From the UHGV virus genome UHGV-1769846: a stretch of DNA of 15,384 bases, one strand, 5' to 3'. This document shows positions 142 through 3,510 of this stretch, piece after piece. Positions within the stretch are counted from its first letter, which is position 1; every line of letters starts with the position of its first letter. Below the pieces are notes generated by a model. The model saw only the letters and a list, made by a program, of their open reading frames with translations, did no database searches and was not told where the DNA came from. The position numbers and the translations under genes were made by a program. Source of the stretch: a virus.

Positions 142-164
142 AAAAAAACCCAGCCGAAGCTGGG
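142..164 (-). terminator. Rho-independent terminator downstream of ant
   Basis: On the minus strand: stem CCCAGC, UUCG tetraloop, GCUGGG, followed by UUUUUUUA (plus-strand A-run 142-148). Lies about 20 nt after the ant stop at 184-186. Confidence 0.7.
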
Positions 165-183
165 TCGTTGCGTTGGTTATCTG

Positions 184-1086
184 TCAGTAATTATGTACTG
201 AAGGAGGTAATTCTTTATTCTTAAGTCTCATCCATGCGGAAAGATTCGTTGGTCCGTCTGGCTCATTGATATCAACATCTCGTGTGTGATTGATTAAAAC
301 GTCTCTCGCCATATCGATAATACGGGAGAACTCATAACCGCAGTCATGACATCTGCCGGAATAGTTCGATTGAATTTGTTTTAGCGCCGGATACAGTTCG
401 CGGAATAATGCCTGTGAGCGGTTGGCATAATCCCATAGCCATACAAGGCTGTTTGCTTCTTTTGCAGAAAGCTCGTTGGTTTTCTTCTCTTGTTTGCCGA
501 TGAACTCACCTTCAAGCACTACCCTGTGGATGTACTCTACTGCTTGTGGTATCTGAGATGCATCAAGCTCTTCAATACTTTCCACATTGAAACGCTGATG
601 AATCATTGCATAAGCTTCTGGGTACATTAGATGCTTTTTGCTGACTAGCATATTTACAGCATCACGAAGCGGAGTCCTGTCATCAACAGATGTTTTCTTC
701 CGTGCATTTGCTGCCTCTCCCTTTGTCCAGTAGTCATGCAGCACAGTAAAGCATTCTTCCTGGTACTGAATCAGTTTATCGCGGATGTCAGCACGAACTT
801 TCTCAGGGTTGATGCTGAACAGCCATCCATTTAACTTCTTCAAAGGAAGGCAGAGTAGCTTACGAAGCTTACCATCAGCGGCAACCATGTTCATATGAAC
901 ACAGTTGAATTTGCTAATCTGCTTCATGAGTTTTGTTTGCTGCGTTGACCAGCTCATTCCGAGGTTTTCAACGATTGGCTTCATCGCAACATATGCAACT
1001 CCGGCAGCCATGGCGGTGATAATTTGCTGACCGTTGAATGGCACGTAAGAGGTGTTCACTGCTTCTAAAATTGCTATACTATTCAT
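184..1086 (-). CDS. ant: Antirepressor (Ant-like, 300 aa)
   Basis: Downstream of arc as in P22 immI. The track ORF begins at a GTG at 1152, but the ATG at 1086 has a GGAGA Shine-Dalgarno 9 nt upstream and gives 300 aa, the length I recall for P22 Ant. N-terminal region resembles phage antirepressor (AntA-type) domains. Confidence 0.75.
1072..1080 (+). promoter_or_regulatory. Candidate extended -10 promoter (TGcTATACT) for an antisense sar-like RNA
   Basis: TGCTATACT on the plus strand inside the first codons of ant, pointing away from ant toward arc. Position is analogous to Psar of P22. Confidence 0.35.
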
Positions 1087-1087
1087 G

Positions 1088-1166
1088 TTGGTTTTTCTCC
1101 ACGGATTTACCGACAACCGAAGCCCTGACTGTTCCAGCAGTTGGGGCTTCACTGTTTTGATTTCTT
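1088..1166 (+). ncRNA. Putative sar-like antisense small RNA covering the ant ribosome-binding site
   Basis: Candidate promoter at 1072-1080 and a plus-strand-specific terminator: 13-bp stem 1119-1131/1138-1150 with two G-U wobbles (A-C mismatches on the other strand), 6-nt loop, then ACUGUUUUGAUUUCUUUG. The transcript would be antisense to the ant SD at 1091-1100. Confidence 0.4.
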
Positions 1167-1318
1167 TGCCGCATCAAGCATCACTTCTGAAAACGTGCGC
1201 TTGCCACTGAATACTCTTTCTCTTCTCAATTTTTCGTTCGTGCCAAATGATTCGCCATGAACAAAATTTGGTCTTAAAATGGTAATCGCAATCTCTTTGA
1301 CTACTGCATCCAAGCGAA

Positions 1319-1471
1319 TCACACCGTTACCCCCTCTCTCTTCAGGCTGTCTATCAGGCGCTTGATAACCTCTGAGTTAAACGACCTGCACTCTTCCTTT
1401 GCCCTGCTACCGATAGCATCCTTTAACGACTGCGGCATCCTTACCAAAATCTTACTTATTTCTTTCTCCAT
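1319..1471 (-). CDS. arc: Arc-like ribbon-helix-helix repressor (50 aa)
   Basis: Translation ISKILVRMPQSLKDAIGSRAKEECRSFNSEVIKRLIDSLKREG aligns with P22 Arc (FNLRWPREVLDLVRKVAEENGRSVNSEIYQRVMESFKKEG). Start taken at the ATG at 1471 with GGAGGG 4 nt upstream, not the TTG at 1507 used by the track. Confidence 0.8.
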   Translation of the reverse strand: MEKEISKILVRMPQSLKDAIGSRAKEECRSFNSEVIKRLIDSLKREGVTV

Positions 1472-1507: not shown

Positions 1508-1565
1508 AAGATAGCAAAGTGAGTATATCTAGTCAAAATTTTTTTGCATACACTTTGCTATCAAA
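1508..1565. promoter_or_regulatory. Divergent immI control region (Pant-like promoter and candidate Arc/Mnt operators)
   Basis: Minus-strand promoter TTGACT (plus 1531-1536), 17-bp spacer, TATCTT (plus 1508-1513), upstream of arc. Inverted repeat arms ATAGCAAAGTG (1511-1521) and CACTTTGCTAT (1551-1561) flank a 29-bp AT-rich core. The plus-strand mnt promoter is not cleanly resolved. Confidence 0.5.
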
Positions 1566-1585: not shown

Positions 1586-1834
1586 ATGGCAAAGGGTGTG
1601 TCAATTTCTCCAACTACGGTAAGAATCCCTGAATCTTTACGCGAGGCTCTTGCTGTCAGAGCATCAAAAAATGGTCGCTCTGTTAACTCCGAGATCGTCA
1701 TGATTTTGCAAGCCGCGATTGATGAAGATAGGTCGCCAAAGTCAGTTGAGTCATTTGCTCAGCAAGAAGCTGATAAATTCAAAGAGGCGCTACTTGAGAC
1801 GCTAAAGACCATGTATGCTAAGGATGAAAAATAA
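1586..1834 (+). CDS. mnt: Mnt-like ribbon-helix-helix repressor (82 aa)
   Basis: Translation MAKGVSISPTTVRIPESLREALAVRASKNGRSVNSEIVMILQAAI...FKEALLETLKTMYAK resembles P22 Mnt in both the RHH region and the C-terminal helix. ATG at 1586 is preceded by AGGTG; the track's TTG start at 1544 is rejected. Confidence 0.8.
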   Translation: MAKGVSISPTTVRIPESLREALAVRASKNGRSVNSEIVMILQAAIDEDRSPKSVESFAQQEADKFKEALLETLKTMYAKDEK

Positions 1835-2370
1835 TGCTGCACACAATTCATTTCTTATGCCCTGTTAACACTGCCACTGTTGGGCAACTTCAGAACCACT
1901 GTCTCACCGCATTATCTCAAGGCGCAACTGAATTAAATATCCATATATCAAGTCAGGGAGGGGAAACTGCTGCTGGCTTTACTGCGTATAACTTTCTTAA
2001 GTCACTCCCTGTTACCGTTAGAACTCACAACATAAGCAATGTTGAATCCATAGCTAATATCGTTTTCCTGGCTGGCTCAGAACGTTTCGCAAACCCATTA
2101 TCAAGATTCCTGTTACATCCTCTATTATGGTGCTTTGCCTCCCCAGCCGCCGACCATGCCAGATTGAGAGAGTACGGGAAATGCCTCGATAACGATCTTG
2201 ATCGCTTCGTTGAGACGTTCAATATCGACATCGGAACCCATATTAGGTGGGCATCCCTGATAGCAGACTCGACCATTTTGGATGCTAACAAGGCTCTTGA
2301 GCATGGCATAATTAATTCCATAAAAACTGCAAGGCTGGCATCCAATCAGGCAAACTGGTGGGTTGTTTGA
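1834..2370 (+). CDS. ClpP-like (S14-type) serine peptidase homolog, 178 aa
   Basis: Start overlaps the mnt stop (TAATG). Sequence NIHISSQGGETAAGFTAYNFLKSLPVTVRTHNISNVESIANIVFLAGSERFANPLSRFLLHPLL parallels the ClpP core (YINSPGG...AG..IYD...V.T.C.GQAASMG..LL.AG....R...P.SRVMIHQP). Candidate triad Ser72, His95, Asp145. Confidence 0.7.
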   Translation: MLHTIHFLCPVNTATVGQLQNHCLTALSQGATELNIHISSQGGETAAGFTAYNFLKSLPVTVRTHNISNVESIANIVFLAGSERFANPLSRFLLHPLLWCFASPAADHARLREYGKCLDNDLDRFVETFNIDIGTHIRWASLIADSTILDANKALEHGIINSIKTARLASNQANWWVV

Positions 2371-2394: not shown

Positions 2395-2420
2395 TAAAAA
2401 ACCCACCTGACGGTGGGTTT
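2395..2420. terminator. Bidirectional rho-independent terminator between convergent operons
   Basis: Stem CCCACC (2402-2407), loop TGAC, GGTGGG (2412-2417). Flanked by an A-run (2395-2401), giving a U-run for the minus transcript, and TTT on the plus side. Confidence 0.65.
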
Positions 2421-2868
2421 AGTCAAACATAGTGTTTCTAAAGTCTCTCGCATACCCTGCTAACACTCTCATTCTATTATGATTGTTAGCAGACATGTGA
2501 GCTACAGGATGAAAAAGAGCAATCAATGAATACCTGTTCTCATCAAAAAGATTTTGTGCATAAACGAGAGCGGTATTGGATGTTTTATGCCACTGCAACT
2601 TTTGCGGTGTGCTGATATCTGTGCCATTTTTTATTGGCTCAAATTTATTTTCACCAATTGCTAAATGAAGGTGCATAAGGCCTGCATCTTCAATATCAGG
2701 AGGTCGATGATAAGAGGTGTCTCTGCCAAAATAGCTGGGCAACGTTCCCGTAGACTTGTAGATGATAAAATCATCTACAAGTGTTTGTTTTAAATCAGGA
2801 AACTCAACAAAAACCGGGGAGAAAAAATAGTCAAAACTATCCTGATTATATTCCACGGTTACTTGCAT
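2419..2868 (-). CDS. YafO-family toxin-like protein (149 aa)
   Basis: Motifs DDFIIYKSTGTLPSYFGRD, HLHLA, ALVYAQNLFDE, LIALFHP and NNHNRM line up with E. coli YafO as recalled (FISYKRDGVLPDIFGRD, HIHLA, HLVYCQGAFDE, LIAILKP, NNQMH). GAGGT sits 5 nt upstream of the ATG, and the start is 8 nt after the upstream gene's stop. Confidence 0.7.
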   Translation of the reverse strand: MQVTVEYNQDSFDYFFSPVFVEFPDLKQTLVDDFIIYKSTGTLPSYFGRDTSYHRPPDIEDAGLMHLHLAIGENKFEPIKNGTDISTPQKLQWHKTSNTALVYAQNLFDENRYSLIALFHPVAHMSANNHNRMRVLAGYARDFRNTMFD

Positions 2869-2876
2869 GTTTTACC

Positions 2877-3443
2877 TCAGTGGAAGTTACCAGAGTGAAA
2901 CACACGAGTCCCGTGCTCAGCAAGCGCACGCAAACCAGCCATATCTACGGAACTATCAAAAACAACCGGAACACATGAGCGTTGTTTAATAAGACTATTC
3001 AGGTTGGTTACGGCAGATCTGGCATCAGCAACAACGATATAGATATCTCTTGCGATCTCTTTAAAATCAGCAGAAGCTTCTTTGAATACCGATTTCATTG
3101 CCCCTTCAAGTCCTCTCAATTGATGCTCTATCAATCGAGACTTTTCTGGTTCAATGATAGACAACACATTGTCTACATTCTCATCGGTAGCGTTTGCAAG
3201 AACACGATAAGCGTATTTCAGCATTCGAGACAATTCTTTAATCGAAGACACCGCCTCATGAAGCTCATCATTAGCCCGTTCACTGCTGAATGAGGATTGA
3301 TGGTAAGCGTGCTGAACGTTATCAGTAACAACCACCTCACAACTGAACGCAGAAGCTTGCTGTAATAGCAAACCTATTGCGACTCCAGCTTTGGCAGCGT
3401 TCAAGCTAAACATTTCATCAATCCCATTAGTCTCATTGCTCAT
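2877..3443 (-). CDS. Hypothetical protein (188 aa), upstream partner of the YafO-like gene; no recognisable family
   Basis: ATG at 3443 with a strong AAGGAGG Shine-Dalgarno 5 nt upstream; the track's TTG at 3473 is rejected. Predicted largely helical, with no DNA-binding antitoxin fold that I recognise. Confidence 0.65.
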   Translation of the reverse strand: MSNETNGIDEMFSLNAAKAGVAIGLLLQQASAFSCEVVVTDNVQHAYHQSSFSSERANDELHEAVSSIKELSRMLKYAYRVLANATDENVDNVLSIIEPEKSRLIEHQLRGLEGAMKSVFKEASADFKEIARDIYIVVADARSAVTNLNSLIKQRSCVPVVFDSSVDMAGLRALAEHGTRVFHSGNFH

Positions 3444-3510
3444 ACAAACCTCCTTCTTATCGGAGATTATCAATAGCTATGCATCCATTGAATACACGCT
3501 ATGCGCAATA

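Follow-up and report, generated by a model that had tools for sequence, protein, structure and literature searches.

A sar antisense RNA gene and a probable additional small cistron between arc and ant in the immunity-I region of a P22-like Escherichia coli prophage

The immunity-I locus and its features

The DNA analysed here, referred to throughout as the window, is one strand of 15,384 nucleotides of the virus genome UHGV-1769846. It comes from a P22-like (Lederbergvirus) Escherichia coli prophage, of which it represents the late-operon and immunity-I part. In DNA comparisons, Escherichia phage phiv205-1 shares 99.5 % identity with positions 900-1700, and positions 1040-1480 are 100 % identical to prophages of E. 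coli APEC O1 and ATCC 11775. The features on which the following account builds are, in order of position:

147-166, minus strand: intrinsic terminator 3′ of ant, GACCCAGCTTCGGCTGGGTT followed by TTTTTAT (terminator scan)
184-1086, minus strand: ant antirepressor gene, with ATG at 1084-1086 and Shine-Dalgarno GGAG at 1097-1100 (Pfam P22_AR_N 153 bits, P22_AR_C 98.5 bits)
1072-1080, plus strand: Psar extended -10, TGcTATACT, within ant codons 2-5; sequence TGCTATACT
1087-1153, plus strand: sar antisense RNA in the extent of the Rfam model (RF00262), with a two-hairpin fold
1087-1114, plus strand: sar 5′ stem-loop (from the fold), its loop carrying CUCC, which is complementary to the ant Shine-Dalgarno GGAG
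1119-1166, plus strand: sar intrinsic terminator, a 14-bp stem (1119-1150) and the T-rich tail ACTGTTTTGATTTC (terminator scan, folding)
1149-1322, minus strand: ORF57, a small cistron of 57 codons (ORF list; phrog_17642 match)
1319-1471, minus strand: arc, a 50-aa ribbon-helix-helix (RHH) repressor (Pfam Arc 45.8 bits; annotated 'Arc protein')
1508-1536, minus strand: candidate Pant promoter, TTGACT, 17-nt spacer, TATCTT, with TG before the -10 (promoter scan)
1586-1834, plus strand: mnt-like RHH repressor (Pfam Arc and FitA-like RHH; phrog_2685, E = 1e-31)
1834-2370, plus strand: ClpP-like gene

The mnt-like gene is divergent from arc, and the candidate Pant is the sole minus-strand promoter site returned by the promoter scan of 900-1700. 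With Pfam Arc matches on both of the divergent RHH repressors, Arc and Mnt, and with P22_AR_N and P22_AR_C on Ant, whose gene shares 98.4 % DNA identity with epsilon34 ant at its 5′ end, the locus has the repressors and the antirepressor of a P22-type immI region. It departs from that type in the path from arc to ant: rather than arc, sar terminator and ant following each other directly across a spacer of about 68 bp, the arc TGA stop (1319-1321, minus strand) is separated from the ant ATG by 232 bp, a distance that the preliminary description of this DNA had given exactly, and ORF57 lies within the gap. That description had also read the interval as a long non-coding spacer holding 10-codon mini-ORFs alone, which proved wrong on both counts: a 57-codon ORF spans 1149-1322 on the minus strand, its GTG start evidently having been overlooked, and the extra DNA of about 165 bp is one small cistron that overlaps the arc stop.

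ORF57 and the variable slot between arc and the sar terminator

ORF57 begins with a GTG (1320-1322) that overlaps the stop codon of arc in the sequence GTGA, and 5 nt upstream of this start lie the final codons of arc, AGAGAGGGGG, which are Shine-Dalgarno-like. Because of the start/stop overlap and the Shine-Dalgarno-like codons, ORF57 is probably translationally coupled to arc. At the other end, the TGA stop of ORF57 (1149-1151) is the foot of the sar hairpin, and its last codons, AAA-TCA-AAA-CAG (K-S-K-Q), are the complement of the sar terminator T-tract. Mosaic break points lie at the same two borders. Similarity to epsilon34 and P22 ends at the hairpin base, window position 1151. Similarity to phage EC.P3, which has the same arc and mnt, begins at 1319, at the arc stop; the segment between 1151 and 1319 is exactly one ORF on the arc-ant strand. 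Within 900-1700, a consensus scan, which a weak promoter could escape, found no second minus-strand promoter between Pant and ant, and a terminator scan found no terminator after ORF57 on its own strand.

The ORF57 product is a basic protein of 57 aa, and the GC content of the gene is 0.40 as compared to 0.478 for the window. It is annotated as a hypothetical protein in GenBank (QGF19908.1, phiv205-1) and in RefSeq, and is left unannotated by PGAP in O104:H4 genomes. In O104:H4 outbreak strains, ORF57 and sar are part of a related prophage whose arc and ant genes are different. ORF57 furthermore fits the 57-position profile of phrog_17642 end to end (E = 1.3e-43, residues 2-57 on profile positions 2-57 of 57), a membership that adds no mechanism, since this family is without assigned function. 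ORF57 is a small annotated cistron in a variable slot, and with it the locus departs only modestly from the P22 immI operon.

Searches of Pfam, NCBIfam, PADLOC and PDB sequences gave no match to ORF57. When 5.8 billion proteins were searched by word index, about ten close clusters of relatives and nothing further were obtained; HMMER, run exhaustively on 1.84 billion representatives, yielded no credible remote relative, and species-representative genomes yielded none either. Several candidates were tried and rejected: the long repeat proteins P0011-P0014, the sole additions from the HMMER search, match through a repeated short motif (LRPxFVxGxSF) and were judged spurious on reading the sequences, two metagenome matches at 46 % identity (L036, L037) were discarded as DNA without real ORFs, and the idea that arc and ORF57 are the halves of a split, longer Arc-like protein was abandoned, given that none of the PHROG profiles for longer Arc-like proteins was matched by ORF57. 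Close copies were found in one of 50,697 phage records, in 93 of 5426 complete E. coli genomes (a single copy each) and in a Klebsiella aerogenes prophage, where ORF57 stands beside a KilA-N-type ant; none was found in plasmids. As judged from these sequence collections, ORF57 is confined to enterobacterial prophages. The copies differ in their neighbours, with arc in three types, the sar 5′ end in at least four and ant in two (P22_AR_N and KilA-N).

The interval between the arc stop and the sar hairpin was measured in at least 120 IMG/VR stretches chosen by the exact sar-hairpin pattern, and all frequencies given here are conditional on that pattern. Among the matches listed, the slot is empty in 65 of 120 (54 %), which corresponds to the P22 type, the arc stop lying 3-4 nt before the hairpin TGA or arc using the hairpin TGA itself. 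It is occupied in 48 (about 40 %) and holds a 32-nt remnant in three; in four, two of which are truncated contigs, an arc ORF upstream of the hairpin was undetected. The occupants belong to at least eight families of small ORFs with no evident mutual similarity, as follows (all numbers are for the matches listed):

ORF57 family (the gene of the window): 9 loci
60-aa family: 2 loci; a Pfam zf-C4_ClpX match of 43 bits (cut-off 27); one copy frameshifted
63-aa family: 1 locus; CxxC...CxxC
67-aa family: 15 intact and 4 frameshifted copies; CxxC...CxxC
73-aa family: 6 loci
74-aa family: 2 loci; CxxC...CxxC
80-aa family: 2 loci
89-aa family: 7 loci; hydrophobic N-terminal segment and heptad-like tail; phages EC.P3 and S.Kent 1-2-1 carry it as well

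Every intact occupant starts on the arc stop as ATGA or GTGA, ends on the hairpin TGA and has A-rich last codons. The C-terminus of Arc reads ..DSLKREG[IV]x[VI] in occupied loci, with minor variants only, and has other sequences, for example ..FKKEGRIGA, in empty ones. Since the exchanged ORFs are flanked by a conserved arc 3′ end and by the sar terminator, these two elements resemble the recombination arms of a cassette slot. The slot moreover imposes a dual-use constraint, in that the last codons of the cargo gene are the terminator tail of the antisense RNA. A literature search for a gene between arc and ant, or for the phiv205-1 immI region, gave general discussion of an 'ant moron' alone.

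Between the window and the K. aerogenes prophage, arc shows a pS of 0.54 and a pN of 0.031 (pN/pS 0.06), as compared to 0.084 and 0.061 for ORF57 (pN/pS about 0.72, calculated from 11 differences only, 8 non-synonymous and 3 synonymous). It follows that the cassette was exchanged recently between operons that diverged long ago. Since this exchange, ORF57 seems to have evolved almost neutrally or under diversifying pressure and would be weakly constrained. Intact copies are all at least 86 % identical, and the lowest full-length match (78 %) is an insertion variant. Two indels were observed, an insertion of 45 nt in L006 and a deletion of 135 nt in L064, L095 and L152, which at these three loci falls between TTGGATGC and CTTGATGC repeats. 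Frameshifted or read-through copies occur as well (P0004, P0006, P0008-P0010), and the AlphaFold2 model of ORF57 consists of three low-confidence helices (mean pLDDT 53.5, pTM 0.25).

An alternative to a translated gene is that 1152-1318 is non-coding filler or a decaying remnant, with ORF57 as an untranslated chance ORF and an insert that alters arc-ant mRNA spacing or stability only. The pN/pS of about 0.7 next to the 0.06 of arc points in this direction, as do the orphan status of ORF57, which is without detectable homologues beyond close copies, its poor structural model, the frameshifted copies and the deletion derivative, and the dispensability of the insert that follows from an empty slot in 54 % of the loci among the matches listed. 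However, a 57-codon frame stays open in 1.1 % of composition-matched mononucleotide shuffles (p about 0.01 for an open frame by chance), ORF57 starts on the arc stop and ends on the hairpin TGA exactly as do seven other single full-length-ORF inserts, both of its indels are in frame, and the E. coli and Klebsiella copies differ by zero indels across 171 nt. Weighing these points, we regard an untranslated remnant as unlikely and predict, with fair though not high confidence, that ORF57 is a translated gene.

A translated ORF57 could also be one half of a type II toxin-antitoxin-like pair, Arc being the RHH antitoxin and ORF57 the small toxin behind it. In gene order and in its 4-nt overlap, the pair has the classic layout of antitoxin and toxin genes, and Arc weakly matches the RHH families of the FitA and VapB antitoxins. 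Yet no toxin family in Pfam, NCBIfam or PADLOC matches ORF57, and 57 aa is short for an RHH-partnered toxin. The partnership is furthermore far from obligate: the same arc types are found with eight different partners or with none among the matches listed, ORF57 pairs with three different arcs, and the deletion removes ORF57 with arc retained. We consider such a pair very improbable, and ORF57 as a coupled cistron carried in an exchangeable slot remains the preferred reading.

The sar antisense RNA

On the plus strand, the preliminary description had proposed a sar-like antisense RNA, and the likeness to P22 sar is borne out beyond that claim. The Rfam sar model RF00262, whose gathering score is 43, matches 1087-1153 with 83.9 bits (E = 9e-17) and over its full length (model positions 1-68 of 68), which is the sole Rfam match in the window. 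At the equivalent position, the model scores 97.8 bits in P22 and 95.6 bits in epsilon34, and it scores 62.6-83.9 bits at every independently retrieved ORF57-bearing locus. The match start at 1087 adjoins the ant ATG and the match covers the ant Shine-Dalgarno GGAG, a geometry as in the epsilon34 annotation.

The extended -10 proposed at 1072-1080 is likewise present and invariant in P22 and epsilon34, the alignment showing TTGCTATACT to be identical in all three. The epsilon34 annotation includes sar and assigns it a promoter 'located by similarity with P22 Psar', which maps to window positions 1052-1080. A TTGCTAnACT motif is retained across at least five different ant N-termini. The -35 position (1052-1057, GTGTTC) is poor; Psar would therefore rely on its TG-extended -10, and the weak -35 also explains why a generic promoter scan of 900-1700 did not call it.

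The minimum-free-energy fold of the RNA comprises two hairpins (-32.4 kcal/mol, z = -5.2). In the 5′ stem, four pairs show compensatory changes among ten sar variants. The second hairpin is the single terminator-like site in 900-1700, and the terminator scan called it on the plus strand alone. Its stem is unchanged between the window, P22 and epsilon34 in the alignment, an invariance that in the larger sample is partly by construction, as the loci were pulled with the hairpin pattern. The hairpin and the T-rich tail at 1119-1166 stand as first described, with a stem of 14 rather than 13 pairs. Folding of both strands also upheld its strand specificity: the plus-strand hairpin has a continuous stem and reaches -23.5 kcal/mol (z = -4.6, none of 200 shuffles folding as well), whereas on the minus strand it reaches -18.2 kcal/mol, with A-C mismatches inside the stem in place of two G-U pairs and with the U-tract absent. 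A sense-strand role of the hairpin instead, in termination, attenuation or processing between ORF57 and ant and with no functional plus-strand RNA, would suit the position of the hairpin between two cistrons and its ability to fold on the minus strand too, but is hardly credible in view of these mismatches, the missing minus-strand U-tract, the plus-strand-only terminator call and the match of the whole 67-nt unit, with 5′ stem-loop and promoter, to the experimentally proven P22 sar.

Because the RF00262 score, the position relative to the ant start and Shine-Dalgarno, the promoter and the two-hairpin fold all agree, sequence evidence makes the plus-strand RNA almost certainly a true member of the sar family and not merely sar-like. 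The 3′ end of the transcript is probably located in the T-run, at about 1153-1160, giving a predicted length of some 67-75 nt; an earlier estimate of about 80 nt was somewhat too long, and its placement over the ant Shine-Dalgarno was correct. The sar antisense RNA is already known biology. That of P22 has been characterised experimentally, according to PMC2629481 and the studies cited therein (Liao et al. 1987, Wu et al. 1987, Schaefer and McClure 1997), and is visible in recent small-RNA sequencing (PMC13397905). Taken alone, the sar call is minor, namely a textbook antisense regulator that is intact in a common E. coli prophage (APEC O1, S88, ATCC 11775). More is gained from the finding that the 'long spacer' is a slot for genes within an early operon under tight autoregulation.

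Proposed mechanism and comparison with known systems

In P22, Pant is active right after infection until Arc represses it, and in lysogens Mnt keeps it silent. In the window, sar would be transcribed from the extended -10 in the first ant codons, starting at about 1087 next to the ant ATG, and would run antisense over the ant ribosome-binding site up to the 1119-1150 hairpin and its T-tract. The resulting RNA of about 67-75 nt would pair with the ant leader and block ant translation as in P22, a function that its family membership suggests. ORF57, seated in the recombination slot between the arc 3′ end (..DSLKREGxTV) and the sar terminator, would be read from the Pant mRNA arc-ORF57-ant without a promoter of its own and translated by coupling to arc. 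Since, by what is known from P22, Pant fires early, is shut by Arc and held off by Mnt, ORF57 would be made together with Arc in a short early burst and be absent in the lysogen. We consider this explanation as a whole, a genuine sar gene plus the extra cistron ORF57 in a recombination slot, to be probable.

ORF57 seems not to belong to the core of the immunity circuit and is most likely a dispensable, fast-evolving accessory protein that may act early on the host or on competing phages. Its predicted timing, optional presence, apparently unrelated alternates and fast evolution would be consistent with an accessory early effector in counter-defence, host takeover or phage-phage competition, a role that we propose tentatively. 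A more far-reaching scenario, which we think doubtful, is that the slot between arc and sar is a cargo site for immediate-early, self-limited small effectors in the manner of acr-aca operons, with Arc as the autorepressor. ORF57 might then inhibit a host defence or takeover target, alternates including free-standing ClpX-type zinc fingers might aim elsewhere, for example at ClpXP, and cargo genes would have to end in A-rich codons because their 3′ end doubles as the sar terminator U-tract. If the occupants are indeed early-acting effectors, the slot would be a convenient place to look for new small phage proteins.

The antisense RNA shares with P22 sar the covariance-model family, a promoter in the first ant codons, a start adjoining the ant ATG, two hairpins with an anti-Shine-Dalgarno in loop 1, and a terminator stem without base differences. 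It differs from P22 sar in one pair of stem 1 (G-C here, G-U in P22), in loop bases and in a longer T-run tail (ACTGTTTTGATTTC as compared to AACTTTACG), and its 3′ end overlaps the last codons of ORF57, whereas that of P22 sar abuts the arc stop. The locus around it resembles the immunity-I regions of P22 and epsilon34 in its divergent mnt and arc-ant, its RHH proteins Arc and Mnt, its P22-type Ant and its location between the ejection-protein genes and the tailspike position. Unlike P22, it has a third cistron between arc and ant, with a gap of 232 instead of 68 bp, and an Arc that differs in its body and C-terminus (..SLKREGVTV here, ..FKKEGRIGA in P22). In P22 and epsilon34, the slot is empty and the arc stop abuts the sar 3′ end.

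For the wider region, Villafane et al. 2008 described an 'ant moron' in rapid flux and listed the APEC O1 prophage as a type with six predicted genes (PMC2629481); in the passages searched, that paper does not point to a variable slot within the operon. As expected of a moron, ORF57 is inserted between genes that are adjacent in related phages, the slot being empty in 65 and occupied in 48 of the 120 loci among the matches listed. It falls outside the strict definition of Juhala and Hendrix, because a promoter and a terminator of its own were not found in the consensus scan, and unlike morons it is predicted to be off in the lysogen. Anti-defence homology was sought in PADLOC and Pfam, both negative for ORF57. 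As in morons and acr-aca operons, small, apparently unrelated and fast-evolving ORFs swap between conserved flanks. The likeness to acr-aca operons further extends to a strong promoter that is quickly repressed by a small repressor of the same operon, and to a lower GC content, with the difference that the repressor gene comes first in the operon here and last there.

ORF57 variants and remnants

An intact copy of ORF57, the 57-codon cistron lying between arc and the sar hairpin (window 1149-1322, minus strand), is carried with 98.2% DNA identity by the 2011-outbreak lineage of E. coli O104:H4 (e.g., L039 1470-1710; hits H93-H96), where the neighboring arc and ant both differ from those of the window and the RefSeq genomes leave ORF57 without annotation. 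In three related loci (L064, L095, and L152), the interval between the arc stop and the hairpin holds a 32-nt remnant, GTGATTCGCTTGGATGCGGCAAAGAAATCAAAACAGTGA, which corresponds to ORF57 minus 135 nt. This deletion is in frame, leaves a 12-codon mini-ORF and has short direct repeats at its endpoints, namely TTGGATGC (codons 4-6) and CTTGATGC (codons 49-51). An in-frame insertion of 45 nt, which duplicates the RRERVF codons (RRERVFMALKGCIKWRRERVF), was found in the 72-aa variant of L006 (1542-1760). The C-terminal end is not invariably kept, because two 77-aa variants from E. coli (P0004 and P0006) shift out of the TGA frame at around codon 54 and continue through the sar hairpin.

Zinc-ribbon-like slot genes and Clp-related neighbors

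Of the eight gene families that occupy the slot separating arc from the sar hairpin, four encode zinc-ribbon-like proteins.

Slot families with a CxxC...CxxC pattern
60 aa: L087 and L116
63 aa: L065
67 aa: L038, L050, L059, and others
74 aa: L080 and L091

The 60-aa protein passed the Pfam model zf-C4_ClpX with 43 bits (cut-off 27) and aligned with the ClpX N-terminus in NCBIfam. If produced in an early burst, such a ClpX zinc-finger domain standing on its own could disturb the recognition of substrates or adaptors by ClpXP.

Further genes lie beyond mnt:

1834-2370, plus strand: 178-aa ClpP-like protein (Pfam CLP_protease, E = 2e-11)
2419-2868, minus strand: 149-aa homologue of YafO-family toxins (Pfam YafO_toxin, 78.9 bits)
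2877-3473, minus strand: 198-aa ORF immediately upstream of the YafO-family homologue

The start of the ClpP-like gene overlaps the mnt stop codon (TAATG), and both genes would presumably be co-expressed in the lysogen. This is an unusual location for a Clp-type protease subunit, and the gene adjoins an operon whose relatives encode ClpX zinc-finger mimics. The 198-aa ORF and the YafO-family homologue may form a toxin-antitoxin or defense pair within the ant moron.

Left edge of the window

For the leftmost stretches (1-53 and 54-183), comparison of the whole window with related E. coli prophages gives matches that start at position 54. Thousands of genomes match part of the window, suggestive of an insertion-sequence end at its left edge or close by. 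The terminator that follows ant on the minus strand (147-166) is undamaged. In phage phiv205-1, a truncated gene for the tailspike and genes for transposases are located just past ant.

Promoter motifs within ant and between arc and mnt

Codons 2-5 of ant (region 1072-1086) contain the -10 motif of the sar promoter, TTGCTAnACT, which is kept at equivalent positions in L004, L014, L009, L023, L099, and L094. The motif persists in ant N-termini of at least five kinds (MNSIA, MKSIA, MTSVA, MTSLA, and MSSLA); these codons are therefore under constraint from the antisense promoter.

The region of the divergent arc and mnt promoters harbors a perfect 12-bp inverted repeat:

1510-1521: arm GATAGCAAAGTG
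1551-1562: arm CACTTTGCTATC, 29 bp apart from the first

One arm overlaps the -10 of the candidate promoter Pant. The arms are probably the operators of the window's own Arc/Mnt pair, and these putative operators differ from those of P22.
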